UHGV virus genome: UHGV-0242533
Origin: a virus
DNA: 64,000 nucleotides
Direction: 5' to 3' (one strand)
Below, in pieces: positions 20,986 to 49,831 of this stretch. Every line of letters starts with the position of its first letter. Position 1 is the stretch's first letter. Made by a program: the position numbers and the translations under genes. The notes beneath the pieces were generated by a model. It had not been told where the DNA came from. It searched no databases and saw only the letters and a list, made by a program, of their open reading frames with translations.

Positions 20986-21090
20986 ATAGCTCTGCGCCGT
21001 TAGCTCAATTGTATAGAGCAGTTTCCTTCTAAGAAATTGGTTGGAGGTTAGAATCCTCCACGGTGCGCCAAATTGAATGAGAGGTGTGTT

Positions 21091-26240: not shown

Positions 26241-26250
26241 AAGGTTAGTT

Positions 26251-27222
26251 ATGTCAATCTCCACAACGATCGTACCTCTTAATCTTCAACAAGATTTAGG
26301 GGAACAGAAGTTCTTAGGTCGTGGGTGCTTCGGTATCCACAACTACATGCAAGGCCAGTGTGTAAATGACATTAATGGTGAAGTTATCACGGAAGAAGGG
26401 CGCTATCGTCGCTTCAACCGCGATATCAACTTGCAACTGGAGATGTTGAATTACTGGACTCACTCTTTTCATGGTCATGTTACATCTGATATTGAAAAGA
26501 ATTTGGTTGAAACAGCAGACATTATGAACTCCATGTCTTGCTATCGTGACGTATTTACGATCACTTCAGCGAATAGTGTTGCTGTCAACCTTCGTGAGCA
26601 TCCAGCAGATCAGATCTTCACAGGACTTATGCTTTTCCGTAGCATTCTGGAAGGGCAGTATCGTGGAATGGATTTCCTATCAGAAGGAATTGAAGACAGG
26701 GAAGAGTGGCTGAAGCGTAAACGCATCGGCATCGCTCTAGTGTTAGCTGGGTTGGGTCGTGACTTCTTCGGTGGATGGTCTCAACGAGGAAGAGCCAATG
26801 GGAGTAGCGAGAGCACCTCTATTGTTATTAACAACAATATGTCAGCAGCAGCATTCCTTCCTTTGGTTGTAGACTCTGATGAATACACGAAGCAAGTATG
26901 GGTTCAAAACCCCTTCGGTGTTGGCGACAACGAGAATGGTTATGTTCGTAACCATAACCAAGATGCCTTACGAAGATTTGCTCGTGCTAAAGATCAAGAC
27001 CCGGACGAGTATGAAACAATGTCAGAGTGGTTAAGACTCTGGTCCAACTGTTATGGTCACAAACGTGAAGCAATAGACGACAAGTTGGGAAACATTACAG
27101 TACAAAACTTTACAGCCCGACTGATTCAAAGAACTGGAGCAGATTCCGGTCTTACTCTTGAAGAAGTTGGTAACACAATCTCATCTCTCTTTTCTGAACT
27201 AGTGGAGTATTACAATGACTAA
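26251..27222 (+). CDS. Hypothetical protein (323 aa) in amidoligase cluster
   Basis: ORF track. Confidence 0.55.
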   Translation: MSISTTIVPLNLQQDLGEQKFLGRGCFGIHNYMQGQCVNDINGEVITEEGRYRRFNRDINLQLEMLNYWTHSFHGHVTSDIEKNLVETADIMNSMSCYRDVFTITSANSVAVNLREHPADQIFTGLMLFRSILEGQYRGMDFLSEGIEDREEWLKRKRIGIALVLAGLGRDFFGGWSQRGRANGSSESTSIVINNNMSAAAFLPLVVDSDEYTKQVWVQNPFGVGDNENGYVRNHNQDALRRFARAKDQDPDEYETMSEWLRLWSNCYGHKREAIDDKLGNITVQNFTARLIQRTGADSGLTLEEVGNTISSLFSELVEYYND

Positions 27223-28021
27223 GCGCAAATTCCTTATCGGCTCTGACCCTGAAATGTTTGTTCGTACTAGCAATGGTATCATCACTTCTGTAGCCGGTTT
27301 ATTAGGCTGCTCTAAGGACGATAAGATCGCTCTGGCTAAGGATGTTCGTCTCCAAGAGGACAACGTACTGGCTGAGTTTGATATTGACCCACAGAGCGGT
27401 TTTGAAGCGTTTAACGATAACATGCAACGTGGTATTGATCTCACCAATAATGTCCTGAACAAACTGGACATGGAAACAGCTCCGGGTGTTAGCTCTCACA
27501 TCTTCACTGAAGAAGAGATGAAGACCTTTAATGAATCAGCGTTCATCTTCGGGTGCACTCCTGATTTCAACGCCTTCACTGGTCAGAAAAACCCATCCCC
27601 GACTTCTCAGAATAAGGGACTTCGTACTGCCGGTGGTCACGTACATCTTGGCGTAGTTGGTGCTTTGGATATCACTCTGCAAACTCAGATGATGCTGGGT
27701 GTGTTGTGTGACTACTTCCTGTCTCTCCCAGCAGTAATTATGGACAAAGATACTCGCCGTAAAGAACTCTACGGTAAAGCATCTGCAATCCGTTATAAAG
27801 ACTATGGTATTGAATACCGTTCTCTGTCTAACTTCTGGATTAGTGATCGTGAAAACCGTAAGTTTGTTTACGATCAGGTTGACAAGGTTGTTCAGCAGTG
27901 TGATATGTCCACCCTGATGGCATTGCACTCTCGCCTTCCGATTGAGAAGCTTCATGAAATCATTAACGGGAACAACGTTAAAGAAGCTGACCAGCAGATC
28001 AAACTCCTTCAGGTAGCATAA
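27215..28021 (+). CDS. Putative carboxylate-amine ligase (GCS2/amidoligase-like), 268 aa
   Basis: N-terminal GSDPEMFV acidic motif and GGHVHLG motif, reminiscent of the glutamine-synthetase-like carboxylate-amine ligase fold; weak. Confidence 0.35.
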   Translation: MTKRKFLIGSDPEMFVRTSNGIITSVAGLLGCSKDDKIALAKDVRLQEDNVLAEFDIDPQSGFEAFNDNMQRGIDLTNNVLNKLDMETAPGVSSHIFTEEEMKTFNESAFIFGCTPDFNAFTGQKNPSPTSQNKGLRTAGGHVHLGVVGALDITLQTQMMLGVLCDYFLSLPAVIMDKDTRRKELYGKASAIRYKDYGIEYRSLSNFWISDRENRKFVYDQVDKVVQQCDMSTLMALHSRLPIEKLHEIINGNNVKEADQQIKLLQVA

Positions 28022-28030
28022 GAGGTTATC

Positions 28031-28648
28031 GTGAGCTTAGTAGCTGATTTTTCTCATTACTATAATGGTACATGGATTGCTAAACGAGCAGGCAATATCA
28101 ACCTTCCGTGTTTTGTGATTGGTGTTGAGCAGAGCGGTAACTTCCGCAGCGATGACTTCTCGCATGAAGCAGAACAGGCTCTGTATTTTGTTGTAGAGCA
28201 GTGGTACAAGAACGAGCATGGGAATCTCCGAAACACTACGATGAATATTCCAGTGTTCGACCCAACCTTGATTCTCGAATCACCTGATGTTGGTTATCTG
28301 TTCCATAACGGTAACACTGTAAGCTGGACTCATATCAATCCTGTTCGTCAGAGAGCGAAGGGTTTGATGGGTAACAAGATTCGAAACGCTCCGGGGATTG
28401 GTCGTTCGATCTCTGGTGAAATGGTTTACAGTCTGTTCAATCCTGAATTTGATGGATTGGTTACTCGTTATATTTACATCAATCCTACAGATGGTAAAGT
28501 GCATTATAAAGGTGCACTGGTAGGTCAGGTAGATCTGGAAGCGCCTCGTGACTCTTACGGTCAACAACCGATGCGACTTCTGGAACATTTTCATCACATC
28601 TCTGAAAACCTTAGCAATTATAATATTACGTTGGTGGATTCGTTATGA
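28031..28648 (+). CDS. Hypothetical protein (205 aa)
   Basis: GTG start with RBS agaggt. Confidence 0.45.
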   Translation: MSLVADFSHYYNGTWIAKRAGNINLPCFVIGVEQSGNFRSDDFSHEAEQALYFVVEQWYKNEHGNLRNTTMNIPVFDPTLILESPDVGYLFHNGNTVSWTHINPVRQRAKGLMGNKIRNAPGIGRSISGEMVYSLFNPEFDGLVTRYIYINPTDGKVHYKGALVGQVDLEAPRDSYGQQPMRLLEHFHHISENLSNYNITLVDSL

Positions 28649-29748
28649 CAACTGTAGCGCAAACTTTTGGATATCGAGAAGGTCGTTTAACTGAGGCGCA
28701 TAGTTCAATTGCACTTCAGTGCGGTGTCGGTATTGAACTTGAACTCGAAGGTTCTGAACATATCGAAGCAGATATGTGGGATTGCACAGAGGATGGTTCC
28801 CTGCGTAACGGTTGTGAAATGGTATGTTCACGACCTTACAACGGACAGGAGTTGTTAGACGCTATCAACAACCTGAGTGAAGCAGTAGCTGAATCGCACG
28901 CCGAGGGGACTTGGCGTTGCTCTACTCACGTTCATATGGATATGAGGGATGCTGATAGTAATATCCTCAAGAAGACCATCCTTGCTTGGACCTTCTATGA
29001 AAAGATGCTGTTCAAGTGTTCAGGCTACCATCGTTACCGTAGCAATTTCTGCCCTGCGTTTGCAGTGGTACAAGCACAGGTAATGAATGCCTCTGACGCA
29101 TTTAACTACGATGGTGAAGAATTCTTCAACCGTCTGGTTCGTTCATGGGATAAATATACATCTCTGAACCTTCTGCCACTTGCCCAATACGGTTCAATTG
29201 AGTTCCGTATCAGTGAGCCTAAGTGGAAACGTGGTCAACTTCTCAATCTGGTTAACCGCTTCTTGATGTTGAAGAAGCTGGCTTTAGATAACGCAGATAT
29301 GAGCAATGATCAGTTTATTGAGCACTTAAATACTGTACGATTTGCCCCAATGCTTCCCTACCTTCCTCTGGATTACAATCTGGATGAATCTGATTTGCAT
29401 TCAGGATATTGTATGGCCCGTGATGTTTTGTATTGCCGTTCTCATGAAGTAGAACAGTCTGGTCGTATTCGTTTACGTAGAACTAACTCCAACGGAGATG
29501 TTCTTGTTGACTTACGTCATATGTCAGACTTCTACGGATTCCTTGGATATGTCCGAGGGAACGCTAACAATTTGTACCAAGAGATTCTGGTTATGCTTCG
29601 TACAGCAGACCTATCTCAAGTAAGACACGCTCCAGAACAGCGTATCCGTGCTATTTTTGACTTACTGCGTGAGTCAGGTCACAGTGATAGCAATATCACA
29701 GGGTACATTCCAGACCATCTGGAAAATCAGTTAGAGCAAGCGCTGTAA
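28645..29748 (+). CDS. Putative amidoligase / carboxylate-amine ligase, 367 aa
   Basis: GIELELEG and STHVHMDM motifs, parallel to the upstream ligase-like protein; weak. Confidence 0.35.
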   Translation: MTTVAQTFGYREGRLTEAHSSIALQCGVGIELELEGSEHIEADMWDCTEDGSLRNGCEMVCSRPYNGQELLDAINNLSEAVAESHAEGTWRCSTHVHMDMRDADSNILKKTILAWTFYEKMLFKCSGYHRYRSNFCPAFAVVQAQVMNASDAFNYDGEEFFNRLVRSWDKYTSLNLLPLAQYGSIEFRISEPKWKRGQLLNLVNRFLMLKKLALDNADMSNDQFIEHLNTVRFAPMLPYLPLDYNLDESDLHSGYCMARDVLYCRSHEVEQSGRIRLRRTNSNGDVLVDLRHMSDFYGFLGYVRGNANNLYQEILVMLRTADLSQVRHAPEQRIRAIFDLLRESGHSDSNITGYIPDHLENQLEQAL

Positions 29749-29827
29749 TCAATGGGTGCCTCTGACAAAGGGGCACAATTTAAAGGTTAATTAGATGAAA
29801 GGGTTTACCCTTCAGGTGGATTAGAAA

Positions 29828-31858
29828 ATTTGTGGCATCGTATTAGCTGGCGGTAATCTGTCAAGCACTGATTTAGACGTATTCAACCAACTCTTTTATG
29901 CTGGAGTATTCCGAGGACAACATTCCTCCGGCATCTTTGGTCAGCGTAAAAGCACTAAGGAAGTCTTCACTTATAAAGAAGCTCTTCCTTCTTTCGCATT
30001 CATCCTACAAGATGAGTACAAGAAGCATACCACTGGTGAAACAGCTTACACTGTAGCACCTTCATGGATTGTTGGTCACAGTCGTCATGCAACGAAAGGT
30101 GCAGTTAACGCCAAGAACGCCCATCCTTTCCAACATGGTAACATCACTCTGGTTCATAATGGAACCTTGATGGACCAAGACCTGTTACCTGACAGTAAAA
30201 ACTTCGAGGTAGACAGTGAGAACATCTGCCACTCTATTAACACTATTGGTGCAGCAGAGACTATTCAAAAGCTGGATGGTGCTTTCACCTTAATCTGGCA
30301 TGATGCTTCTGATAACCGTCTTCATATCATCCGTAACGAAGAGCGTCCATTCCATCTCGCACGTTGTAACAGAGATTGGTTTGGTGCTTCTGAAGAAGAC
30401 ATGTTGATGTGGATTCTGAAGCGTTCTAGATCTCACAAGAACCGTATTGATGAGCATTTTGAATGTAAAGTTGGTACAGAATATATCTTTGATATGTCAA
30501 ACAACAGCATGACTCTGGTTGAAGAGGTCGCCCACGAGCTTCCGGTTTTTACGGTAATCAATCGTTGGGGCAATTACTACTCGAACAACTACAGCCAAAG
30601 CAACTATCAAAGTTCCTCAAAAAGCAATACAAGCAATCCTTACGACACGAAGCCGGGAGTGACAGCGGCAGACGTTCGTCGAAGAAACGCAGTGGTAAGT
30701 CAAAACAAAATCGCAAGCGATCGAAACATTGATATTCGCCGTGATATGACTGTGGAAATCACACCACATGAGTTTGTTCCTTATGCAGCTGCTGGTGCTG
30801 TTCCTTCTCGTGGTAAGATGATCGGTTATATCTACGATGAGAAGTCTCAAGAGTATATCGAAGGTGATGTTCATAATGTAGACATTAAGGCTTATCAGGA
30901 TGCACTGAAAGACCCTAAAATTGTTTACCGTGGAACAGTATCCTGCATCTCCGAAGTTAATGCTATGGTTCGTTTAGTGATCACAGCAGGTCGTTTTGTT
31001 GACCCATCTCTGGAGAAAAAGGAGCCTGAGTCTACTACTGCTGACTTTGATGATGATATCCCTTTTGACATGAATGATAGTTTCGTCAACAAGAATGGCG
31101 TTACTATCACTCGTAAATTCTGGGAAGCACACTCTCATGGTGACTGTGGTGGTTGTGACAAACACATTGATTGGAAGGACGCACCTAAAGCAGTCTTCGC
31201 ATATCAGTGCTACTGGCATCCTGAATGTCTGGAAGGTTTGACTAAACCTAAAGAGGAAGAAGAGGAGGAAACTCCTATTGGTGTTTGTGAAATCTGCGGT
31301 GAAGTTAAAACAGAGAATGAGTTCGATGATGAACTTAGTCGTCTTCGTGGTGAAGATATCTGTAAAGTCTGCGCTGTAGAAGTAAAGAAGAAAGTATCTA
31401 ATGCTACGATCAAAGATGGTTATGTATGGATTAAAGCAACAGATACAACAAACGCCCGTCGTCCTGAATTTGCTTTACGTGTAACTGAAGATATGATTGG
31501 TCGTATGACTGTATTACCTTCCTCAGCGAAACAGACAGGCATCACTCTGGAGGATGTTGTTGATGCTTATGTTGAGAAACGTAGCAACAGTATTTTTGCA
31601 ATCTCAACTAAGCCAAAAAAGGAGGAACCTGCTGAGAAAGCAGGTGTGTTTCCTGAATCACGAACAGCTCTCCGAAAAACTGTTGTCAGCTTCGACGGAA
31701 ACCGAAGCACTGACTTCACCAAAGCCATGTGGTCAACCCTCGGATACTGCTCAGAGTGTTTTAAGCAGATTCCGTGGCGCGATGCTGAAAGTTGTACGCT
31801 TGGTTCTATGAATCAAGTTTATTGTAATTCTCCTAAATGTTCATTGAATAGAGGTTAA
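29828..31858 (+). CDS. Class-II (Ntn) glutamine amidotransferase domain fused to C-terminal multi-zinc-ribbon domain; probable AUU start
   Basis: Translation from 29828: (I/M)CGIVLAGG...FRGQHSSGIFG...VGHSRHATKGAVNAKNAHPF...ITLVHNGTL, matching PurF/GlmS-type motifs. An in-frame TAG at 29822 leaves ATT as the only start that exposes the Cys; SD AGGTGGA is 7 nt upstream. C-terminal half has several CxxC pairs. Confidence 0.7.
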   Translation: MCGIVLAGGNLSSTDLDVFNQLFYAGVFRGQHSSGIFGQRKSTKEVFTYKEALPSFAFILQDEYKKHTTGETAYTVAPSWIVGHSRHATKGAVNAKNAHPFQHGNITLVHNGTLMDQDLLPDSKNFEVDSENICHSINTIGAAETIQKLDGAFTLIWHDASDNRLHIIRNEERPFHLARCNRDWFGASEEDMLMWILKRSRSHKNRIDEHFECKVGTEYIFDMSNNSMTLVEEVAHELPVFTVINRWGNYYSNNYSQSNYQSSSKSNTSNPYDTKPGVTAADVRRRNAVVSQNKIASDRNIDIRRDMTVEITPHEFVPYAAAGAVPSRGKMIGYIYDEKSQEYIEGDVHNVDIKAYQDALKDPKIVYRGTVSCISEVNAMVRLVITAGRFVDPSLEKKEPESTTADFDDDIPFDMNDSFVNKNGVTITRKFWEAHSHGDCGGCDKHIDWKDAPKAVFAYQCYWHPECLEGLTKPKEEEEEETPIGVCEICGEVKTENEFDDELSRLRGEDICKVCAVEVKKKVSNATIKDGYVWIKATDTTNARRPEFALRVTEDMIGRMTVLPSSAKQTGITLEDVVDAYVEKRSNSIFAISTKPKKEEPAEKAGVFPESRTALRKTVVSFDGNRSTDFTKAMWSTLGYCSECFKQIPWRDAESCTLGSMNQVYCNSPKCSLNRG

Positions 31859-31860
31859 GT

Positions 31861-32094
31861 ATGGAAATTCGTAAGATGATGCTGGATAATGTTGTAACTA
31901 CTCGACGTATCCCGATGACGAGCACAGGATGTGACAACCTTCGTGCAATCCAGAAGTGGATGCAAGCTGGTATTGGTCAAGTACTTGAAACACAGGTTGA
32001 GGTTCCTTTCCCAACGGTGATCAACAACGTGCTTGCTGATTATGTAAAAATCAAAGGCATTAAGGTAGAACCTCATGTCAAATCTGGTTCCTAA
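31861..32094 (+). CDS. Hypothetical protein (77 aa)
   Basis: ORF track. Confidence 0.45.
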   Translation: MEIRKMMLDNVVTTRRIPMTSTGCDNLRAIQKWMQAGIGQVLETQVEVPFPTVINNVLADYVKIKGIKVEPHVKSGS

Positions 32095-32299
32095 GAAACC
32101 AAAGATCACTCTCCTACAGTATTACATGGGAGTTCATATCGAATTAGTAACGGAGCAGCGAAAGCTGTATCCGTTCGCTTTCGGTCTGATTGATGCACCA
32201 TCCGATGAAGTAGAGAACGATGCGTTCAACGACTACTTCGAAATTGAAGCTCAGATTCAAAAAACTCGTAACGAAATTCTTAAACTTAAAGGTATCTAA
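32075..32299 (+). CDS. Hypothetical protein (74 aa)
   Basis: ORF track. Confidence 0.4.
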   Translation: MSNLVPKKPKITLLQYYMGVHIELVTEQRKLYPFAFGLIDAPSDEVENDAFNDYFEIEAQIQKTRNEILKLKGI

Positions 32300-32301
32300 C
32301 A

Positions 32302-33495
32302 ATGACTACTCGTATCCGTGTTCTTCCTTATGGTCCTTCTGATTCAGTTCGTGAACTTACTTCTGCAATTAACACTAAGATTCAGGAACTTCGCTTAAAC
32401 GCTAACGTAATGTCTCTGGTATCAGAAGGCTCTCGTTATCGTTCTCGAGTTGGTGATATTGTTGTCAACTATGGAAACCGTCGATACAATGATTCTTTCT
32501 TTGGTGGGGCAACTGTATTGAACTCTGTGGTTGCCTTGAACCGAGCAGCTAATAAGATTGCAGCATTTAACGCATTGCGTTTAGCTGAAGTTAAAACTGT
32601 TGAATACACCACTGATCGTGAATTAGCTCTGAACTGGAACCAGAACGAAATTGTTTACGAACGTGCAACATTAACTGGTCACTCTGGTGAAGGTATCACT
32701 GTTCGTCTTCCGACAGAAGGTGTTGCAGATGCCCCTCTATACACCAAAGGTATTCAAGGCCCACGTCGTGAATGGCGTGTTCATGTATTTGAAGGTGTTA
32801 TCACTTACGTTCAGAAGAAGATTCGTCGTAATGGATACCGTGATCTGTCAACCTATCGTGAAGACATTCGCAATCACCATACTGGTTGGGTTTATTCCTC
32901 AAACTTCCAAGATGCACCACCTCCTCAAGTATTGATTCAAGCTCACAAAGCTGTAGAAGCTCTTGGATTGAACTTTGGTGCTGTTGATCTAATAAGCAAA
33001 GTTTCTAACGCTTGGGTTCTGGAAGTAAATACTGCTCCTGGGCTGACTGGTACAACTCTGGAAACTTACACTCATAATATTGTTGAGTTTGTTAAGAGCT
33101 TCTCTGGAGTTGATCCTGATTATCGTGTTGCTTACGAACTGCCTGTTGAAGAAGTGGAAGAGTTTGCTGAATCAGCAGATGACGAGAACTTTGCATTGAC
33201 AGCTGAACCAGTTGTTGAAGAGTCTTCGGAGCCTGTTCCTGAAACAATGCAAGTGGAAGAACAAGGGTTAGAGATCAACCCTGTCACCCGTCGTACTTTA
33301 CGTCGTGGTTATTACATCGCTAATATCAAGCACCCTGAGAATGGTTCAACTGTAGCAAGTAATGTGATCTTGTTCTTCTGTGGTCGTAACTTCTACCGCT
33401 CTGGGTGGAACGCACCGATTAGTGATCGCCAGCTTGGTCGTGTGTTGCAGATTAACAGTCTTACTCTGAATGATGGCACTGTTGTAAACTACTAA
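32302..33495 (+). CDS. ATP-grasp family ligase (397 aa)
   Basis: C-terminal motif AWVLEVNTAPGLTG (ATP-grasp E-x-N signature) plus RimK-like core. Confidence 0.6.
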   Translation: MTTRIRVLPYGPSDSVRELTSAINTKIQELRLNANVMSLVSEGSRYRSRVGDIVVNYGNRRYNDSFFGGATVLNSVVALNRAANKIAAFNALRLAEVKTVEYTTDRELALNWNQNEIVYERATLTGHSGEGITVRLPTEGVADAPLYTKGIQGPRREWRVHVFEGVITYVQKKIRRNGYRDLSTYREDIRNHHTGWVYSSNFQDAPPPQVLIQAHKAVEALGLNFGAVDLISKVSNAWVLEVNTAPGLTGTTLETYTHNIVEFVKSFSGVDPDYRVAYELPVEEVEEFAESADDENFALTAEPVVEESSEPVPETMQVEEQGLEINPVTRRTLRRGYYIANIKHPENGSTVASNVILFFCGRNFYRSGWNAPISDRQLGRVLQINSLTLNDGTVVNY

Positions 33496-33501
33496 GGATA
33501 T

Positions 33502-33750
33502 ATGGATATGTTTTCATTGGAAGATCTAGTACAAAATGGAATGATGGAACAAAAAGAGCCTCTTATTGTAGGCTCTCGTAAAGAGTTGCGTAAATTGTGC
33601 GAGGAGTGGGGTATTACTAATCAGCGAATGGTTGGTAATCAATTCTCTGCAATTGTAACTTTCCTAAAACGTGGTGATAAATACTCTATGGAATGTGTAG
33701 AACGTATCATCACTGAAGCACAACAAGACAAAGGAGTAACATATCTATGA
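33502..33750 (+). CDS. Hypothetical protein (82 aa)
   Basis: ORF track. Confidence 0.45.
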   Translation: MDMFSLEDLVQNGMMEQKEPLIVGSRKELRKLCEEWGITNQRMVGNQFSAIVTFLKRGDKYSMECVERIITEAQQDKGVTYL

Positions 33751-33932
33751 ATAAGTATAAAGTTCTGTTTAAAGATACCAATGCCGCTGGTGAAATGCGA
33801 GCTATGGACCTAGATGCTGACATGTTTAACTTCTCTGATGGCAAAGTGGCCTTCTTTCAAGGAAGTGAAGCCGTTGCAGTGTTTGAGAGTGCAGCAATCT
33901 GTGGTGTAATCAAAATCTTTATTACAGAGTAA
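33747..33932 (+). CDS. Hypothetical protein (61 aa)
   Basis: ORF track; overlapping start/stop. Confidence 0.4.
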   Translation: MNKYKVLFKDTNAAGEMRAMDLDADMFNFSDGKVAFFQGSEAVAVFESAAICGVIKIFITE

Positions 33933-33986
33933 TCTGCTTTAGCCTCTTCGAAAGAGGGGGCTAGTTTGGATAAACTGGAGAATATA

Positions 33987-34166
33987 TGAAACTTTTTGAT
34001 GAAAAACACAAAAAGCAAATGGAAGACAACTCTAAGAAGTTGGAATCCAATCTTCGTAAACGTGTAGCCCAAGGCTCGGATGGTTCTCTGTTCGGAAATA
34101 TCGGATACTCTTTTGCCAAGAATCTTTTACATAGTATGGAAACCAGAAAAGTGATAAAGAAATAAA
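33987..34166 (+). CDS. Small hypothetical protein (59 aa; below cutoff)
   Basis: ATG with upstream purine-rich region; own translation. Confidence 0.3.
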
Positions 34167-34224
34167 ACAGTTTTCTTTATCTACAACTCATGAACAAATT
34201 ATTTAACATAGAAAGGTATTTAAA

Positions 34225-34644
34225 ATGTCAGAAGTAATTTACGTAGCAACTTATGGTTCTCTTCGTCGTGGTCAAGCTAACTATTTAGTTAATGATCGAG
34301 CTGGTGCTAAGTCTATTGGCGAGGGTTGGACTGAAGATAACTTCGATCTGTTCCGTTACGGTGGTTCCTACTTCCCGAGCATCTCTCTCGCACACAGCAA
34401 TAGCAATAAGCCTGTTCGTGTAGAAGTGTTTGCTACTGACAAAGCAGGTCTGGAAGGTCCATATGACCGACTGGAAGGTTACAACAAACGTAGCCCTGAA
34501 GACAGCTTCTATCAGCGTACTCAGATTGCTGTTAAGATGGACTCAGGTGAAACTGTTATCGCTTGGATTTATCACATTGACGAAGAACAAGATGTTCTGG
34601 TCGAATCTGGCGACTGGTCAGAGTATCTGAAAAGTGAATCTTGA
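34225..34644 (+). CDS. Gamma-glutamyl cyclotransferase-like (AIG2/GGCT fold) protein
   Basis: N-terminal YVATYGSLRRG motif and size of about 140 aa. Confidence 0.55.
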   Translation: MSEVIYVATYGSLRRGQANYLVNDRAGAKSIGEGWTEDNFDLFRYGGSYFPSISLAHSNSNKPVRVEVFATDKAGLEGPYDRLEGYNKRSPEDSFYQRTQIAVKMDSGETVIAWIYHIDEEQDVLVESGDWSEYLKSES

Positions 34645-34837
34645 GAAAAGACAGGCTCTTCGGAGACTTGAAGCCAAGTATTTAATGCTACGGTGCAAAA
34701 TCAACCGACATGAACGTTTCGTTGAAGCTGCACAATCTAAAAACTTTGAATCATCAGTGGAGATGTTCAAGACCCAACTTTCTTTTTATAGGAAAGAACA
34801 GGAACAAGTGTGGGATGAAATTCGTTCGTTCTACTAA
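34634..34837 (+). CDS. Hypothetical protein (67 aa)
   Basis: ORF track. Confidence 0.4.
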   Translation: MNLEKRQALRRLEAKYLMLRCKINRHERFVEAAQSKNFESSVEMFKTQLSFYRKEQEQVWDEIRSFY

Positions 34838-34863
34838 GCTCAAGGATTCCAAGGAGGAAGAGC

Positions 34864-36354
34864 ATGTCAAAGATCATTTTGGGAGACACAGGTTGTAAGG
34901 AATGTATCTCTCATGGTCGTGATAAAACCCACAACCACATGATTCTCTTCCGTAACGAAGAGACAGGTGAGGAGTGGGGGAGTTGTAACCGTTGTGGGAA
35001 TTACGAAGTGTTCGAAAAGGGCACTACACCTACTCCAAACGAGAAGAAAGAGCTATCCCCTGAAGAGTTAAGAGAAGTCTTAGACGATTGCTTAGAGCTT
35101 CCTCAGGGTGAACTTACTCGACGTTTAATCCCTAAAGCCGTATCAGAGCGTTTTGAGTGTCGAATTGGTCTAAGTCAGACTGATGGTCAGACTCCAGACA
35201 GCTACTTCTTTCCTCGTGAACGTGATGGAAACATTGTCGGTTATGAGGTTAAGCTGCTTGACAGTAAGAAGTTCTATTACGTTGGCAGTGTGAAAGAAGC
35301 AGATTTATTTGGTATGGCACAGGCTCAGCGTGGAGATGTGTACAACAAGAAGCTGTTCATTTTTGAAGACCCGCTATCCTGTATGTCAGGTTTCCATGTC
35401 CTTACAGCTTTTACAAATGCAACAAACATTAAACCAGCATGTGTTTCTTTACCGTTCGGTGCAGGTTCAATCTCTTCTGTGTTGTCTCGTAATCGAGACT
35501 TCGTAAATGGTTTTGAGGAGGTTGTGCTCTGCATGGACAATGACGATGCAGGTGAGATAGCTTTAACAAAAGGTCGTTCTTTATTCCCTCATGTCAAGTT
35601 TGCTCGTATTCCTAAAGGAACCTTCCCATACAACGGTGTGGAGAAAGAGATTAAGGATGCGAATGACATGCTTCTGTCTGGTCGTGGTCAGGAGTTATTC
35701 AACATTCTCAAGTATTCAGCAAAGCGAGAATCTCCTGCTGGCGCTGTAACAATCTTTGATTGCCTTGATGATGCTCTGAAGAAAGCGGAGTGGGGTATTC
35801 CATATCCGTGGAAGACTCTGAATGAGATGACCTTTGGTATTCGATGGGGAGAGGTGGTAGCAATCGGTGGTGGTGTAGGTAGTGGTAAGACACTAATTGC
35901 TCACGAGCTGGTTGCTCATCTGTGCTTAGAGCATGGTTTTAATGGGGGTGGCTTCTTCTTGGAAGAGAAGGTAGGCATGTCTGTTAAGAACATCGCTGGT
36001 AAGTCAGCATCAATTCCTTTCCACCGACCTGATGTTGAATATGATGAGGAGGATTTGCGTAATGAAGCACTTCGTTATGCAGACAAATTCTTCTTGTATG
36101 ACAACTTCGGACAGAATGAATGGGAAGACATTAAACAGTGTATCCGTTTCTGGGTAGTTGAAAACCAGTGTAAGTTCATCATCCTTGATAACATTACCGC
36201 TCTGGTATCTCATTTAACACCTTCAGAGATTAACACTGAAATCAGTAAGATTGCTTCAGAGCTTGCTGGTATGTGTAAAGAGTTAGACTTTACCGCTTTC
36301 GTTCTATCTCACCTTAATGCTCCGGCAGGTGGTGCTCCTCATGAAGAGGGTAAG
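34864..36354 (+). CDS. T7 gp4-like primase-helicase, exon 1
   Basis: Zn-ribbon CKEC...CNRC, Toprim-like VVLCMDNDDAGE, Walker A GGGVGSGKT; ends at SHLNAPAGGAPHEEGK then stop, matching the T7 gp4 H3 region. Confidence 0.75.
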
Positions 36355-37147
36355 TAACAAGCCCTCTATAAATTCTGTGAACTCAGGGGAACTCTAGAAC
36401 AGACAATCCTGAGCTAAGCCTAGTAATAACCCTCCTATAAGGAGGTAATATGAAACAGTATCTTGGAAAATATACGGTTCATAAAGATGGACGAATAATC
36501 AGTCACTATAACGGGAAGCCTTTAACCATCTCTCTTTACAAACCAAATAAACAGGGTAAGAAGATTGTTTATCCTAGAGTTAGGCTCTGTATTGACGGGA
36601 AAGGTAAATGGTTTGCACTACACAGGATTATAGCTGAATGCTATATCCCAAATCCAGAAAATCTTCCACATATAAACCATAAAGATGGAAACAGATTGAA
36701 TAACTCTGTTGAAAATCTTGAATGGTGCAGTCATCTACAGAATATACGGCATGCCCAAGAACACAACCTCAACCCTAAAGGAGAGAGGCAAGGTATTGCA
36801 GTTGCAACTGAAGAGATTGTAAGGAGAATTAGAAGTTTAAGAAGGGGTGGTATGTCTTATAAAGATATCGCTGAGCTTGTTAAACTTAAGAGAAGAACAG
36901 TCGAAGCTATTGGTTCTTATCAAAACTGGAAACACATAGAGTGAGTGGTTATTACTAGGAAAGTGCAACGACTAGGGTGGGCGTAAGCCCGAAGTACAGC
37001 CAAGCGGTGTCATTAACATTGACTTAAATGGAAGCGCAGAACCTTCAAATTGAAGTGAAGATATAGTCTGGTCTACATGGGGACATGTAGCAGTTCAGAG
37101 ATAGAACCTGAACGGGGTGTGATTAGCGATCACATCTGAACACAACG
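36352..37147 (+). mobile_element. Putative group I intron carrying an HNH endonuclease ORF (boundaries approximate, +/- 3 nt)
   Basis: Helicase frame interrupted by a stop; the downstream in-frame segment continues the gp4 homology; U at the 5' junction and G at the 3' end fit group I splice-site rules. Confidence 0.55.
36450..36944 (+). CDS. HNH homing endonuclease (164 aa), intron-encoded
   Basis: HINHKDGNRLNNSVENLEWCSHLQN motif; strong SD taaggaggt. Confidence 0.75.
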   Translation: MKQYLGKYTVHKDGRIISHYNGKPLTISLYKPNKQGKKIVYPRVRLCIDGKGKWFALHRIIAECYIPNPENLPHINHKDGNRLNNSVENLEWCSHLQNIRHAQEHNLNPKGERQGIAVATEEIVRRIRSLRRGGMSYKDIAELVKLKRRTVEAIGSYQNWKHIE

Positions 37148-37450
37148 GGACAGGTACGTGAAGTACAGTTCACTGGCTCTCGTTCTCTTATGCGTTGGTG
37201 TCAGTGTATCATTGGCTTTGAGCGTGACAAGCAAGCTGACGGCTTAGCTAAGAACCTCTCAGTCATTCGATTACTGAAAGAACGTAACTACGGTCAGACA
37301 GGTGTTTGTTATACTAAGTATATCAGTGAAACCGGTAGACTTGTAGAAAGGGAAGACTTTGAAGTTGATGAAGATAATCCATTCGTTTTAACTAACGGAG
37401 AGGATGCAGCTTCTCTCGTCAACCAAGCAGATGGAGCTTCACCGTGGTAA
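37148..37450 (+). CDS. Primase-helicase exon 2 (C-terminal helicase segment and acidic tail)
   Basis: In-frame translation from about 37148: [29 protein letters not shown]...[15 protein letters not shown]...YISETGRL..., colinear with the T7 gp4 C-terminus. Confidence 0.6.
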
Positions 37451-38001
37451 AGAAAAAGAAGAAAGTGTTTGCATTCGATATCGAGAGTAATGCACTGTAC
37501 GATGACATAACTAAAGTATGGTGTATTTATATCTTTGATGTTGAAACTGGTGAAAGGTGGGGCTATCGGCCTCACCAAATTGAAGATGGGATTCATAAAC
37601 TTACAGAAGCAGATGTGCTCGTGGGTCACAATATTATTGACTTCGACCTTTGTGCTCTGAAGAAAATGTATCCCAATCTAATTGAATATCGTTTTAACGT
37701 CTTTGACACTTTATGTCTTAGTCGATATCTTAAACCTGACCGTATTGGTGACAGTCCTGAGTATCCGAAAGGCGACCCTAGACATGGCCCAAGAGGTCAT
37801 GGCTTGAAGCAATGGGGTGAGTTCTTAGGGGAACTTAAAGGTGATTACGGTGAGCAAGAGGAAGCATGGGATGCTTTCACTGAAGATATGTTTACTTATT
37901 GTGAACAGGACGTTAACTTAACTGTTAAGGTTTATCTTTTCTTGTGTGAACTCACGGGATTTGACCCTTACGACCCACCTTCATTATATTGGAAAATGTA
38001 A
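37444..38001 (+). CDS. DnaQ-like 3'-5' exonuclease domain protein, separate from the polymerase gene
   Basis: Exo motifs FAFDIES, HNIIDFD, YCEQDV. Confidence 0.6.
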
Positions 38002-38002
38002 A

Positions 38003-39373
38003 ATGATTGTTATCCCGATTAACCGAATTGAAGATAAGGTTGCTCAACAACCTGATATTGCTGTTGGTCGTCACTTCATTGAACAGTTGATTAACAACAA
38101 CTTGGTTCCAGACGGTATCTGTCCCATCATTACTGGTGGGGCTGTTCGAGATGCTGTGCTTAATAACACAGCTCCACATGACATTGATATCTTTATTGTC
38201 AGAGGACAAACACCAAGAACTCAAAACACATTCATCCCAACTGATCGTTGGCAAGCTCTTGGAAGAGAGATTGAAAGTAATGTGAAGGAATGGCTAGAGT
38301 CACAAGATATCGAATATGCATCCCTTCTTGCTGAAGCTACAAACGAATCCTATGCTGGGGGTTCTCAATTAACATTCACTGATATTATTGAGTTTCAGTG
38401 GAATGGAACCCGCATTCAATTCATGTTTAATTATCCTACTTCTATTGAAGAGGTATTGGATAATTTTCCTATGATGTGCCGTGGTGCGATAACTCTTGAC
38501 AGCTTATTCATGACCCCTCATGGATATTTAGCTATGACCGCTCCTTGCCCTGTGGTTGTTTCTAGTCGTGAAATCAGATACGTTCACAAGAAGTGGCCTA
38601 ATTCACAGGTATTAAGATTCTCCGCTCCATCTGTTGCATATCAATATATGGCACAAACTCGATACCTTCCTACACCTCAACCAGTTAGTCATCTGGTCAA
38701 CGAACGAGGTCAGGTTGCTCCTGTTGAGGATACAACAAGTGCTCAATATTGTGTTAACCGAGACATGAGTCGATTCTTTGGAATCCCTTACGAAGAAATT
38801 CAGTTAATGTCAAGTGTTCATGGCTCTGGTCAGATTCGTGCGTATTGGTCTGAAGGGTTGACGAATTTAACAACTAATACAGGAGGGGATCTCCTTGGTC
38901 GAGAAGAGGAACCTAACCGACACAATGCAATTGAAGGGGTGTTTGTAGCCCCTGCAATGCGTCGAGCACAAGAGTCACGAAGAGTAAGCCCTACTCGTAG
39001 AACATCTTTTGAAGAGGCTCTTGGTGTTACTAGCGATTCATTTGAGCAGTGGTTGTCTAGACGTTCTAATGGTCTGTCAAATGGTTTGACTGCTAGCCGT
39101 CACCAGTTCTCTGGTCAGGGTTTTGCTGTTGGTGATATTGACCAAGCTGCTCGTGTTATATGGACTGATGAAGCATCTGCTCAAGATGTGGTTAATAATC
39201 TCGCCGATCTTGATATTCCTTCTCATGGCGAGCTAGCTGAGACTGTCAGTCGTAGTCTCGCTGATCGCTTTGTTGCTGATAACCCTGAAGTATTAGAGCC
39301 TCAAACCAATACAATTAGTGTTGCTGACGTAGTTGGTGATGGATTCTCTTTTTACGCACGAACAAATAACTAA
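38003..39373 (+). CDS. Nucleotidyltransferase of the CCA-adding / poly(A) polymerase family (456 aa); internal ATG chosen
   Basis: N-terminal GGAVRDAVL...HDIDIFIV matches the GGxVRD...DxD head-domain signature. Confidence 0.5.
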   Translation: MIVIPINRIEDKVAQQPDIAVGRHFIEQLINNNLVPDGICPIITGGAVRDAVLNNTAPHDIDIFIVRGQTPRTQNTFIPTDRWQALGREIESNVKEWLESQDIEYASLLAEATNESYAGGSQLTFTDIIEFQWNGTRIQFMFNYPTSIEEVLDNFPMMCRGAITLDSLFMTPHGYLAMTAPCPVVVSSREIRYVHKKWPNSQVLRFSAPSVAYQYMAQTRYLPTPQPVSHLVNERGQVAPVEDTTSAQYCVNRDMSRFFGIPYEEIQLMSSVHGSGQIRAYWSEGLTNLTTNTGGDLLGREEEPNRHNAIEGVFVAPAMRRAQESRRVSPTRRTSFEEALGVTSDSFEQWLSRRSNGLSNGLTASRHQFSGQGFAVGDIDQAARVIWTDEASAQDVVNNLADLDIPSHGELAETVSRSLADRFVADNPEVLEPQTNTISVADVVGDGFSFYARTNN

Positions 39374-39382
39374 GGAATAAGA

Positions 39383-39916
39383 ATGAGTTTACTAGGAAGT
39401 GTTGAACTGCATGATGTAATTGACAATGGCTATCTGGATGCGGAGCATAAGTATGTTAACGCTGCTAGTGTGGATATCCGTATTGGTGATACTATCCTTG
39501 TTGAAGAACAGGCTGATGGCATCGTTGATATTGATGCGAAAGAGAATCTTCAGTGGAAGGAAGTAAAGATTCCTGAAGAGGGTTTGGTTATCACTCCGGG
39601 TCAGTTCTTCTTGGCTCACTCTATGGAAGAGTTTAATCTTCCAGATAACATCTCAAGTCTGTTTGTCCTGCGTTCGTCTATGGCTCGTTGTGGTTTGAAC
39701 CACCTTCACGCCGGTTGGGCAGATGCAGGATTTAATAGCAGTAAGCTGACATTTGAATTCCATAACGTAACCAAGCACCACAGTTTACGAGTTCGTGCTG
39801 GTATGCGTGTAGGTCAGATGGTAATGTTTGAGCACTCTCATGCAGGGGAACACTCCTATGCAGTGAAGGGTCGTTATAATAACTCTGAAGGTGTAGTTGC
39901 ATCTAAAGGTGTGTAA
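39383..39916 (+). CDS. dCTP deaminase / dUTPase superfamily protein
   Basis: ASVDIRIG and GWADAGFN motifs; 177 aa. Confidence 0.65.
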   Translation: MSLLGSVELHDVIDNGYLDAEHKYVNAASVDIRIGDTILVEEQADGIVDIDAKENLQWKEVKIPEEGLVITPGQFFLAHSMEEFNLPDNISSLFVLRSSMARCGLNHLHAGWADAGFNSSKLTFEFHNVTKHHSLRVRAGMRVGQMVMFEHSHAGEHSYAVKGRYNNSEGVVASKGV

Positions 39917-40114
39917 ATGAAAAAATGGATTGTTCGTGTACATGATAACACGACTGGAGAGTTAGTAGCTGTAGATTTTGTTAAGACTCGAGAGCACGCA
40001 CGTAGAGTCAAAAATCAATACAAGTCTACTTTTAGACTTAACAAGGTTACATTAGGAAGGGCTATTGTGAATAGCGAAGGTGCTTTTATTGCCAACAGTA
40101 AGGTTTATTATTAA
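39917..40114 (+). CDS. Small basic protein, paralog 1 of 3
   Basis: 65 aa; shares TREHAR/TRQQAR/TRKEAR and C-terminal KV-YY with the next two ORFs. Confidence 0.5.
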   Translation: MKKWIVRVHDNTTGELVAVDFVKTREHARRVKNQYKSTFRLNKVTLGRAIVNSEGAFIANSKVYY

Positions 40115-40323
40115 TGAGACCGATCACTATGAGACAATTTTGGTTAGCAAAGATCAAGTGGGCATCAGGTGGCATGACTATGACTGCACTACCCACTCGC
40201 CAACAAGCTCGAGATTTTAAAAAGACTATGCTTACTGGTGACGTGGTCAATAGTATCAGTATCCATAAGGCCAAGGAGTATTCTTCTGGTCGTATTTATA
40301 TCAGCGGAAAGGTGCATTACTAA
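40114..40323 (+). CDS. Small basic protein, paralog 2 of 3
   Basis: 69 aa; tandem paralog. Confidence 0.5.
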   Translation: MRPITMRQFWLAKIKWASGGMTMTALPTRQQARDFKKTMLTGDVVNSISIHKAKEYSSGRIYISGKVHY

Positions 40324-40532
40324 TGAAAAAGATGTGGGCTATTCGTGTTGTCTGGGAACAGAAACAACACTTAGGTAAAGATAATATCAAACTGTTTAAC
40401 ACTCGCAAAGAGGCTCGTGTCGCTAAAAAGAATATGAAAGCTCTAATAGGAACTGTTAAAAGTGCTGACATTCATCGCTGGTATGAAGACCCTAGCTCGG
40501 GTTCTTTTATGTCTAAAGTAATTTATTACTGA
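40323..40532 (+). CDS. Small basic protein, paralog 3 of 3
   Basis: 69 aa; tandem paralog. Confidence 0.5.
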   Translation: MKKMWAIRVVWEQKQHLGKDNIKLFNTRKEARVAKKNMKALIGTVKSADIHRWYEDPSSGSFMSKVIYY

Positions 40533-40558
40533 TTGGTAGTAGATATGGTAACTCTCAA

Positions 40559-40567
40559 ATGTATATA
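40559..40567 (+). promoter_or_regulatory. Near-match to TAATGTATA element (AAATGTATA)
   Basis: About 40 nt upstream of the 40605 start. Confidence 0.3.
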
Positions 40568-40604
40568 GAGTACAATAAGAATTTGTATTTTACAGGAGAG
40601 AGTT

Positions 40605-40934
40605 ATGTTAGATTTGAGTAAAGTGGCCCCGCCCACTGAAGAGATTACAAAATCCAAGGTGATGCAACAGTTTTATCATCGTGATATGCTTGGTCGCTTT
40701 ATCAAGAATCGTGATGTTGTTGCTTGGTCTATTGGTAATCAGGGATATCTGTTGAAGGTTCTTCAGGTTACAGGTTCAACTGCTAAGCGAGTTAAGGTGT
40801 ATGACCCTGAAATGGGGCGTTCTAAGTCAGTAGACCCACAGAACTGCATCGTAATTACCCAGCAGGTAATGGATAATATTGCACGTAACGTTGCTAACTC
40901 AGTTGAACTTGATGGAGAAAACCCAAATGCATAA
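40605..40934 (+). CDS. Hypothetical protein (109 aa)
   Basis: ORF track; RBS ggagagag. Confidence 0.5.
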   Translation: MLDLSKVAPPTEEITKSKVMQQFYHRDMLGRFIKNRDVVAWSIGNQGYLLKVLQVTGSTAKRVKVYDPEMGRSKSVDPQNCIVITQQVMDNIARNVANSVELDGENPNA

Positions 40935-41490
40935 GAATGTTTTTGATTTACCTGATATTGGTCGTTCAGAATATAACATGTTAGACCGGTCTGAGCTTTC
41001 AATCTCTCGCCTTGAAACAATGCAGGGTATGATTAGTGGAAACAGCCTAGAACACATCCTGAGCTGCTTGCAAGCTAACATGGAACTCTTGCATATCAAA
41101 GCTAAAAACTACCACTGGAACGTCTCTGGTGCAGGATTTCAGGGTGTTCATGGTATGTTTGACGAGCTGGAAGATTACGCACGACAGGTAGGAGATCGTA
41201 TTGCTGAACGTATGCGTTACCACTGTGTTAAAGTGGACGCTACAGCAGCTAACTACCTCTCTCATGCTTGGTTCTCAGAGGGTAACGCTGATCTAGACAT
41301 GGACGGTATGCTCTCTGATATGTGCATGACCTTGATGTGTATTATTGAGAAGATGGATGAGTTTGATGGCGATTTAGCCACTTACCCTGTCGATCAGAGT
41401 ATGCTTCAAGAAATTAATGAAGGTCTTGGCAAGTATTGCTACTTCGTCAAGAGCAACATGTCCCATTCAAGTGGTGACGTGTCTTACTAA
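40927..41490 (+). CDS. Dps / ferritin-like protein (187 aa; internal ATG chosen)
   Basis: LQANMELLHIKAKNYHWNVSGAGFQGVHGMFDELEDYARQVGDRIAERM parallels the Dps helix A/B signature (YHWNV.G..F..LH..F.E.Y...D.IAER). Confidence 0.55.
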   Translation: MHKNVFDLPDIGRSEYNMLDRSELSISRLETMQGMISGNSLEHILSCLQANMELLHIKAKNYHWNVSGAGFQGVHGMFDELEDYARQVGDRIAERMRYHCVKVDATAANYLSHAWFSEGNADLDMDGMLSDMCMTLMCIIEKMDEFDGDLATYPVDQSMLQEINEGLGKYCYFVKSNMSHSSGDVSY

Positions 41491-49084: not shown

Positions 49085-49831
49085 ATGAGCATGATTCCAA
49101 CTATCGCAACTTCTTCCCGTAAGTCCAACTACGATGTAATCCCTGATGGTGAGTACGAAGCACGTATTGTTCGTGTAGTAGGTTTGGGTGTTCACAATCG
49201 TGACCCTTGGATTGACCCGAAGACCAAAGCAGTAACTCCTAAGAATCCAGCTTTCCGTATGGATTTAGCTTTCGAGCTGATTGGTGTTGATGCTACTGGT
49301 AAAGATTCCGATGGTAAGGCATTAGAACCACGTCCGGCTTGCCAGTTCAAGAGCTATGATGTAAACCCACGAGCTAAGAACTCTGGTATTCTTGATCTTT
49401 GCAAGATGATTGACCCAAGTATTCAAGCACTGAAAGGTGATCTGTCTTGGTTCAAGGATGTTCTGTTAGGACAGCCTGTTAACATTCTGGTTAACTCTTA
49501 CACTAACAAAGCTGGTGAAGTTAAAAACTCCATCAAAACCATTTCTCCAATCCCAACCAAATATCGTGCAGCAGTTGGTGAAGCTCGTAGTCCTCTGGTA
49601 TTCTTCGAACCGTATGCTGAAACCGATGAGAACGTAGCATCCTATCAACTGATGTTCCCGTTCCAGCGCAACCTGCTTACCCAAGCTAATGACGCTAAGA
49701 ACATGCCTCTGGCTGGTCGTGAAATTACTCGTGCTTCTGAGACAGAACAGAAAGAAGCTACTCCTTCAATCCCTACGATTGATAAAGAGCCTGCTTCTAC
49801 TTATGAAGACGACAACGATTCGCCTTTTTGA
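49085..49831 (+). CDS. Putative single-stranded DNA-binding protein (acidic C-terminal tail)
   Basis: C-terminus ...STYEDDNDSPF resembles the SSB acidic tail (DDDIPF type); call rests on the tail motif only. Confidence 0.4.
   Translation: MSMIPTIATSSRKSNYDVIPDGEYEARIVRVVGLGVHNRDPWIDPKTKAVTPKNPAFRMDLAFELIGVDATGKDSDGKALEPRPACQFKSYDVNPRAKNSGILDLCKMIDPSIQALKGDLSWFKDVLLGQPVNILVNSYTNKAGEVKNSIKTISPIPTKYRAAVGEARSPLVFFEPYAETDENVASYQLMFPFQRNLLTQANDAKNMPLAGREITRASETEQKEATPSIPTIDKEPASTYEDDNDSPF

Follow-up and report, generated by a model that had tools for sequence, protein, structure and literature searches.

Gad2-like counter-defence as a possible role of a fast-evolving class II-type nucleotidyltransferase in a phiEco32-like phage

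Which role could a nucleotidyltransferase (NTase) play among the replication genes of a podophage? This question is raised by an open reading frame (ORF) in the UHGV virus genome UHGV-0242533, of which the whole analysed stretch of 64,000 nucleotides is referred to here as the window. The ORF runs on the + strand from an ATG at position 38003 to the last nucleotide of a stop codon at 39373; its product of 456 amino acids is in the following called the window NTase. In the initial annotation, it was assigned to the family of CCA-adding enzymes and poly(A) polymerases (PAP) by means of the N-terminal sequence GGAVRDAVL...DIDIF, and both blocks are in fact present (residues 45–53 and 60–64). Our analysis retains the class II-type nucleotidyltransferase head, while the specific CCA/PAP membership is not supported. 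As judged by profile comparison, the protein and its homologues appear to be a remote sister group of Gad2 (Gabija anti-defence 2; Pfam PF26128) in the class II-like superfamily, with cellular tRNA enzymes being more distant than the Gad2-type enzymes of phages. The explanation we rank first, at somewhat less than an even chance, is that of a Gad2-like counter-defence enzyme.

Identity of 91–94.5% over the region 37400–40000 to about 70 Escherichia/Shigella podophages of the phiEco32 group (Kuravirus, Gordonclarkvirinae), with Shigella phage SGF2 as top match, places the window among the phiEco32-like podophages (Kuravirus). The nucleotidyltransferase annotation as such, a mention in the BASEL paper, the PHROG family and weak Pfam Gad2 matches were already known. 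New here are the failure of the tests for a CCA/PAP enzyme, Gad2 as the nearest relative, an unusually fast evolution and a conserved anatomy of domain, hairpin, motif and tail.

Active site and relation to Gad2

An AlphaFold model of the window NTase, built on 16 homologues, was confident over residues 1–220 and a helical hairpin at residues 247–271, with predicted local distance difference test (pLDDT) scores below 50 for residues 271–420 and 431–456. The N-terminal domain is predicted to adopt the class II (CCA-adding/PAP) head fold, comprising the head and the start of the neck only. Conservation was judged on 27 family representatives (the window NTase and 26 others) with pairwise identities below 50%; G45, G46, R49, D50, D60, D62, F64, Y117, I128 and Q139 are invariant in all of them. 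Motif A of the class II enzymes (GGxVRD, then DxD) is thereby present as GGAVRD (45–50) and DID (60–62). The probable third metal-binding carboxylate is residue 127, which is D or E in nearly all representatives and lies on a modelled strand (125–133); E130 was discarded for this function, as it is not conserved, unlike D/E127. Absence of the fold and loss of the catalytic carboxylates, both named in the initial annotation as grounds for giving up the assignment, were not observed, the head fold being modelled and the carboxylates conserved. The window NTase is, by its residues, probably catalytically competent, and both this competence and the fold are well supported.

The elements that select the incoming nucleotide are a different matter. 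Class II enzymes use motifs B (RRD) and D (EDxxR) to recognise ribose and base of the incoming nucleotide, and neither RRD nor [ED]DxxR was found within the first 235 residues of any of the 27 representatives. At the position of motif B, the arginines of the class II RRDFTIN are missing and the Asp is replaced by Pro, so that the family reads N-F-P. At the site of motif D, 23 of the 27 carry the family motif [DE]xxYxx[KR]K, which in alignments pairs with R..KY..KGY in Gad2 and ..K[FY]P in small phage NTases. Even if the counter-defence reading should be wrong, the family remains a branch of the class II nucleotidyltransferases with a changed nucleotide-selection pocket.

The proposed check by a PolyA_pol head search was borne out in part: Pfam PolyA_pol (PF01743) matched beyond chance (E 6.5e-4; profile positions 3–82 of 126), yet its 20.5 bits lie below the gathering threshold of 23. 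In hhalign, the family matched canonical class II enzymes over the 34 columns of motif A only (probability 91%, E 1.1e-6; percentages for hhalign below are likewise probabilities), and motif A alone aligned with E. coli Cca and PcnB individually. Superposition on CCA/PAP enzymes, which comprise 340–420 residues, covered 160–181 residues only, and the RNA-binding body and tail domains of class II enzymes are predicted to be replaced by a disordered tail. Moreover, a Pfam scan of the window NTase gave no match to PolyA_pol_RNAbd, NCBIfam (including the Cca and PcnB equivalogs) gave no family match at E up to 1, and a sequence search of solved structures with the protein and the family profile returned chance-level matches only, with CCA-adding enzymes at E ~0.8 via motif A. 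Because the body and tail domains, RRD, EDxxR and an NCBIfam match are all missing, we do not consider membership in the CCA-adding enzyme/PAP family supported; what stands is the class II-type head and, presumably, a two-metal nucleotidyl transfer in common with these enzymes. The accompanying statement that the window holds no tRNA genes is contradicted by a tRNA-Arg(TCT) gene at 20994–21070 (ARAGORN), which encodes the acceptor stem, the discriminator G and the 3' CCA. Since this gene brings its own CCA, CCA supply for the phage tRNA was discarded as a function.

Gad2 has been described as the second anti-Gabija protein of SPbeta-like Bacillus phages: SPbetaL7 becomes Gabija-sensitive when it is knocked out, and Gabija is blocked by a homologue from Brevibacillus. 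Its nucleotidyltransferase domain was predicted by AlphaFold, the SPbetaL7 copy is toxic, and the mechanism was still listed as unknown in a February 2026 review. The Gad2 homologues of Supplementary Table 10 of the original Gad2 paper were aligned and used for hhalign and for a Gad2 N-terminal hidden Markov model (HMM). Here, the family matched Gad2 over 131 columns spanning residues 33–195, i.e., the whole domain (84.9%, E 6.5e-6); together with the small phage NTases, the match comprised 136 columns (97.8%, E 7.8e-13). Gad2 itself aligned with canonical class II enzymes over 119 columns (88.6%, E 2.7e-6). The family's FP-M-MC pairs with FDFTVC of Gad2, while the Gad2 stretch FDFTVCMGA pairs with the canonical RDFTINTLA. 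Among the Gad2 invariants AGG, DxD, FD.T and P...R...Y, counterparts align for GG, DxD, F155, P183, R189 and Y193, with the Asp corresponding to Pro156 and the Thr falling in a gap. Precomputed Pfam PF26128 matches exist on many family members; the one on P0056 is unmarked, those on P0054 and on a Kuravirus protein 88% identical to the window NTase are flagged as weak. The Gad2 N-terminal HMM scored family members at 5–27 bits, and as the window NTase reached only 6.4 bits, the Kuravirus branch is the most diverged.

A profile search of 1.84 billion representative proteins returned about 30 clusters at E<1e-30, followed by a gap and then by about 145 weak matches, 119 of them listed. Family members were found in phages only. 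The weak matches checked are small phage proteins of phrog_1614, a family that matched the window NTase at E 7.1e-8; outside the family, the Gad2 N-terminal HMM recognised 104 of the 119 listed weak matches at E<1e-5, and a canonical PolyA_pol assignment was obtained for one of ten scanned against Pfam. In a T7-like Ralstonia phage, the gene of a related small NTase is flanked by those for primase and DNA polymerase. The NTase gp22 of the P. putida phage Emajogi, likewise located beside a primase/helicase gene and with homologues annotated as Gad2 family, is cytotoxic, and the head-only NTase Gp22 of Klebsiella phage fHe-Kpn01 is toxic in E. coli; the placement of both in phrog_1614 is based on the literature only. 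For the Gp22 homologue of phage KP34, the region read contained no GGxxRD motif.

Gene context, evolution rate and C-terminal tail

The match of the window NTase to the phrog_12715 profile ("nucleotidyltransferase") covers residues 1–456 on profile positions 1–457 (E 3.6e-250). In phiEco32, phi32_73 occupies the same genomic position and is annotated "hypothetical protein"; newer phage records label the orthologues "nucleotidyltransferase", and proteins 77–90% identical to the window NTase occur in about 70 Kuravirus records. As all homologues begin with MI(V/K)IP, a longer ORF from the upstream in-frame GTG at 37946 was ruled out as the gene, and the stop codon of the exonuclease subunit lies 1 nt before the ATG. 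The literature search turned up no work on the function of phiEco32 gp73 or its orthologues; a proteomics entry for SU10 reports the orthologue with a single peptide. A promoter and terminator scan of 34000–41000 gave nothing beyond shuffled expectation. The coordinates of the features are collected in Table 1.

Table 1. Features of the window NTase and its adjacent genes (window coordinates).
Feature	Position	Strand	Remarks
DNA polymerase 3'-5' exonuclease subunit	37444..38001	+	Pfam DNA_pol_A_exo1, E 3.3e-8; PHROG "DNA polymerase exonuclease subunit"
Window NTase, whole ORF	38003..39373	+	456 aa plus stop; phiEco32 gp73 orthologue; phrog_12715
Nucleotidyltransferase domain, residues 1–220	38003..38662	+	class II-type head plus first neck helix (predicted)
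Motif A, residues 45–64	38135..38194	+	GGAVRDAVLNNTAPHDIDIF; holds catalytic D60 and D62
D127, probable third metal-binding carboxylate	38381..38383	+	hydrophobic-[DE]-hydrophobic pattern, beta strand; assignment inferred
F155-P156-M-M-C159, motif B-equivalent position	38465..38479	+	hhalign pairing with Gad2 FDFTVC
Family motif E190-I-R-Y193-V-H-K196-K197-W-P199 ([DE]xxYxx[KR]K)	38570..38599	+	helix where class II has motif D
Helical hairpin, residues 247–271	38741..38815	+	MSRFFGIPYEEIQLMS; helix-turn-helix-like look, no family match
Predicted disordered tail, residues 272–456	38816..39370	+	length and sequence differ between lineages
W282-S-E-G-L286 ([WY]-S-x-G-[LR])	38846..38860	+	just 3' of hairpin
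Acidic distal tail, residues 371–456	39113..39370	+	charge profile; net charge -11, pI 4.05; ends in aromatic patch
Aromatic patch F448-S-F-Y451	39344..39355	+	near C-terminus; G-[IF]-S-F in other Kuraviruses
dCTP deaminase (DCD)	39383..39916	+	Pfam DCD, E 3.5e-34; always next conserved gene after NTase

As a gene under selection, the NTase is functional, yet it evolves faster than all other members of a very conservative module. Compared with locus L014, identity amounts to 96% for the helicase and for DCD, 98% for ThyX and 87% for the exonuclease subunit, as against 43% for the NTase domain, and similarity of the NTase tails is not detectable. Among close Kuraviruses, the ratio of nonsynonymous to synonymous substitution rates (dN/dS) is at most 0.01 for the helicase, at most 0.04 for DCD, 0.05–0.15 for the exonuclease subunit and 0.11–0.12 for the NTase domain, which is therefore under purifying selection; the tail reaches 0.29–0.39. 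Towards contigs of 82–90 kb, the helicase is 78%, DCD 75–80% and the NTase about 30% identical. Also dS of the NTase is 2–3 times that of the flanking genes, which suggests that alleles might have been imported. Accessory genes that face the host commonly show such a pattern, which is unusual for core parts of the replisome. In an otherwise very similar Kuravirus, locus L013 (IMGVR_UViG_3300045988_017452), DCD is 58.5% and the helicase 99.8% identical to that of the window, indicating by sequence a putative swapped DCD allele beside the NTase.

The module comprises, in this order, a DnaB-like primase/helicase, the exonuclease subunit, the NTase, DCD, three small paralogues, a Dps-like protein, thioredoxin, ThyX, PhoH and PolA, and the order helicase, exonuclease, NTase, (HNH), DCD is kept around homologues of about 30% identity on contigs of 66–100 kb. 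The three tandem paralogous genes directly 3' of DCD (39917–40532) encode 65–69 aa each, belong to phrog_4939 (unknown function) and end in ...V(Y/H/IY)Y. The helicase gene (34864–37450) holds a 796-bp insertion at 36352–37147 relative to phage Bas91, flanked by colinear stretches (34804–36351 and 37148–38099). An HNH_3 endonuclease ORF (36450–36944) and a full-length, sub-threshold match to the Group I intron model RF00028 (36808–37090; 34.6 bits, E 7.5e-7) lie within it, and the insertion probably represents a group I intron that encodes a homing endonuclease. Upstream of the replication genes (about 25044–34644), a cluster typical of phiEco32-like phages encodes a COOH-NH2 ligase, an amidoligase, a glutamine amidotransferase, a RimK-like protein ("ribosomal protein S6 glutaminyl transferase") and a gamma-glutamyl cyclotransferase, the names being those of the Bas91 annotation; distant relatives likewise have amidoligase, amidotransferase and cyclotransferase genes upstream of the helicase.

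C-terminal to the domain, the modelled hairpin consists of helices 247–259 and 263–271 (pLDDT up to 85); it is kept within Kuravirus, and its pattern recurs in distant homologues. W282 and L286 of the following motif are invariant across Gordonclarkvirinae, [WY]SxG[LR] recurs in most of the distant representatives, and some homologues stop soon after it, at 274–300 aa. The conserved core reaches through hairpin and motif. For the remaining tail, no similarity to the Suseptimavirus tail was detectable. Its constraint is weaker than that of the domain, yet it is not neutral, and conserved islands are present. While the NTase domain is acidic (net charge -7, isoelectric point (pI) 5.1), the Kuravirus tail has a mildly basic middle, followed by an acidic stretch of 86 residues (net -11) ending in G-[IF]-S-F, with G447 invariant in Gordonclarkvirinae. 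Many other family members possess basic tails rich in Ser, Thr and Arg (pI ~10). Across the family, F or W is the last residue in 8 of 26 representatives, compared with 1.4 expected and a level reached in 0 of 5000 shuffles; P0056 ends in ...EDLLPF and several Gad2 homologues in ...PIF or ...PWF. The aromatic patch of the window NTase is a possible docking motif. Its last 20 residues (39311–39370) read TISVADVVGDGFSFYARTNN, as opposed to TVRFADEAGRGISFDMETNN in the consensus of 41 other Kuravirus clusters; the codons differ by clustered point substitutions without frameshift, the aromatic residues are kept, and this stretch is a local hypervariable patch.

In T7 gp4, T7 gp2.5 and the tails of bacterial single-stranded DNA-binding proteins (SSB), a terminal aromatic residue docks onto partner proteins. 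The primase/helicase of the window ends in ...ADGASPW (37400–37450), and an SPW, APW or RPW end is kept in all related phages checked. A 248-aa protein (49085–49831; phrog_6599; without Pfam match) ends in ...YEDDNDSPF and resembles an acidic SSB C-terminal tip. By analogy, the ends of these two proteins suggest a T7-like replisome that could be joined by C-terminal aromatic tails.

Weighing the possible roles

Counter-defence is ranked first on four grounds: the family is homologous to Gad2 and confined to phages, its mode of evolution agrees with such a role, and toxicity is seen among its relatives. The window NTase would then work like Gad2, which lets SPbeta-like phages escape the Gabija nuclease defence, as an accessory enzyme against host defences that is produced along with the replication proteins. 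Using NTP or dNTP and two Mg2+ ions, it would move a nucleotidyl group onto an acceptor, e.g., a DNA or RNA 3' end, a nucleotide (yielding a small-molecule product) or a protein, and as an outcome a host nuclease-type defence would not be triggered or would be unable to act. More speculatively, the disordered tail with its aromatic end could tether the NTase to a partner protein. Several points weigh against this explanation. Homology at the distance of Gad2 would not guarantee the same target; the invariant Asp of the Gad2 FDFT is Pro in the family of the window NTase, and where Gad2 has a folded C-terminal half of about 230 residues, the window NTase has hairpin and disordered tail, the two halves being unrelated. 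With the Gad2 N-terminal HMM, E. coli PcnB scores 8.2 bits and thus above the window NTase, and the precomputed Pfam Gad2 match on the 88%-identical relative is flagged as weak. Furthermore, the position of the NTase in the replication module is fixed across the whole phage group, which fits a replication-linked role as well, and no published Gabija test on Gordonclarkvirinae was found in the literature.

Among the alternatives, all of which we regard as unlikely, the one carrying most weight is a replisome-tethered DNA enzyme that adds nucleotides to DNA 3' ends or primers, or takes part in a covalent DNA modification behind restriction resistance. It keeps this weight because the gene position is fixed and the restriction resistance unexplained: the order of primase/helicase, exonuclease, NTase and DCD is kept even at about 30% identity, the NTase starts 1 nt after the exonuclease stop, and the related small NTases of the Ralstonia phage and of Emajogi have primase/polymerase or primase/helicase genes as neighbours. 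Loss of the ribose-reading RRD motif would also suit a DNA enzyme, and the acidic distal tail with its aromatic end, taken together with the ends of the helicase (...SPW) and the 248-aa protein (...DDNDSPF), recalls the tails of T7 gp4, gp2.5 and SSB. According to the BASEL paper, which notes the NTase in passing, Gordonclarkvirinae resist restriction without a known modification pathway, and DNA modification was suggested. In the whole window, 11 EcoRI, 30 EcoRV and 10 EcoKI sites are present, so that site avoidance was rejected as the cause of this resistance, a result neutral on the role of the NTase; of the 6-bp palindromes, 660 occurrences stand against 1075 expected, a moderate depletion, with 11 palindromes absent, and CCWGG occurs 3 times compared with 72.7 expected from base composition. 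Yet core replisome proteins are nearly invariant (dN/dS at most 0.04), and the NTase falls to 43% identity where they hold 96%. ThyX and DCD are ordinary enzymes of dTTP supply, which argues against dU-DNA, the aromatic motif is not at the extreme C-terminus of the window NTase, where docking is inference only, and no DNA hypermodification pathway is known to use this kind of NTase. Ranked next, and somewhat less probable, is an enzyme acting on RNA 3' ends, as the initial annotation had proposed, either in restoring the CCA ends of tRNA, from host or phage, after damage by defence nucleases or in RNA tailing, e.g., to hasten host mRNA decay as PAP I does. This would fit the structural neighbours, the many basic tails of the family recall the basic C-terminus of PcnB, and the toxicity of related phage NTases could reflect unregulated RNA tailing. 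However, the protein has no body and tail domains with which a tRNA could be bound, the RRD and EDxxR motifs for CTP/ATP selection are absent in all 27 representatives, a Cca or PcnB family match in NCBIfam is missing, and the catalytic domain is acidic. The 3' CCA is already part of the phage tRNA-Arg gene, a Cca enzyme is available from E. coli, and the distant relatives outside the family are of Gad2 type and not cellular tRNA enzymes. Repair of tRNA 3' ends or RNA tailing is thus less likely than counter-defence because of the Gad2 relation and the fast evolution.

The Gabija nuclease GajA is regulated by nucleotide levels, and a nucleotide product is therefore one possible route for Gad2-like enzymes. 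This leads to the proposal that the window NTase, without a polymer as acceptor, joins nucleotides into a small product, a dinucleotide or similar, which jams or pre-empts nucleotide-sensing host immunity. The acidic catalytic domain and the lack of an obvious nucleic-acid-binding module would agree with it, and a precedent exists in MNT-like phage NTases, which make 3'3'-cGAMP and c-di-AMP and inhibit TIR-STING (Ho et al.). However, the precedent belongs to a different clade whose GS-x-AY..SDxD motif is absent here, no sequence feature points to cyclase chemistry, and we consider this product improbable. Least probable among the alternatives is a host-shutoff toxin that, like MenT/AbiEii toxins, nucleotidylates the acceptor ends of host tRNA or some other molecule essential to the host and so arrests host metabolism. 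Related phage NTases are toxic when expressed alone, and this as well as the fast evolution of the gene would be in line with such a toxin; against it stand the lack of a PADLOC match and of close structural similarity to defence NTases (MenT/AbiEii, CD-NTase), the location in the middle/replication cluster and not in an early host-takeover cluster, and the dependence of the phage itself on the translation system. The ideas of a nucleotide product and of a DNA-end enzyme could, moreover, be ways in which a Gad2-like enzyme works. In a combined scenario, which we regard as a long shot, the tail with its aromatic end would dock the NTase either to the replisome of the phage or to a host protein with affinity for the C-terminal tip of SSB, and addition to DNA 3' ends or a nucleotide product made at the fork would blind nucleases that sense DNA ends or nucleotides, such as Gabija.

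The NTase family is present in every phiEco32-like coliphage examined, and the protein is among the few enzymes of unassigned role in the replication module of these unusually restriction-resistant phages. As the related phages Bas86–93 grow on E. coli K-12 (BASEL paper), they offer a tractable E. coli system for the mechanism of Gad2. If the counter-defence reading is true, the gene would be relevant to the host range of phages and to therapeutic phage design; if the combined scenario is true, it would add to the broad nuclease and restriction resistance of Gordonclarkvirinae and reveal a Gad2-type mechanism.

Comparison with known phage nucleotidyltransferases

Like the window NTase, the MNT-like enzymes are phage NTases of the pol-beta superfamily, and theirs, the synthesis of competitor cyclic dinucleotides, is an enzymatic form of counter-defence. 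Their clade motif GS-x-AY[GAN]T-x4-SDxD and the NP-x-hh[DE] site are, however, absent from the window NTase. The Av-05 NTase of the cyclic-dinucleotide paper and the Av-05 homologue of Gad2 are probably different proteins, the latter having AGGAITS...NDLDLYF and no MNT-like motif.

Closer to the window NTase are the small head-only NTases of podophages (phrog_1614), e.g., that of Ralstonia phage DU_RP_I, with which it has Q139, F155 and the K-[FWY]-P helix motif in common. Most of them are Gad2-family proteins by HMM, and they adjoin primase/helicase and DNA polymerase genes. In contrast to the window NTase, they comprise 170–230 residues without hairpin, WSxGL or long tail, and they keep the FD of motif B.

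Gad2 itself differs from the window NTase in location, being encoded in the anti-defence locus of SPbeta phages and not in a replication module, and in motif A, where GGAVRD of the family stands against GG(A/T)ITS. Nevertheless, both are phage or prophage proteins with an N-terminal class II-like NTase domain and variable regions C-terminal to it, several Gad2 homologues likewise end in an aromatic residue, and the order of motifs is common to both: GG...DxDhF, IQ(L/F)M, F(D/P)..C and P...R...Y..K.

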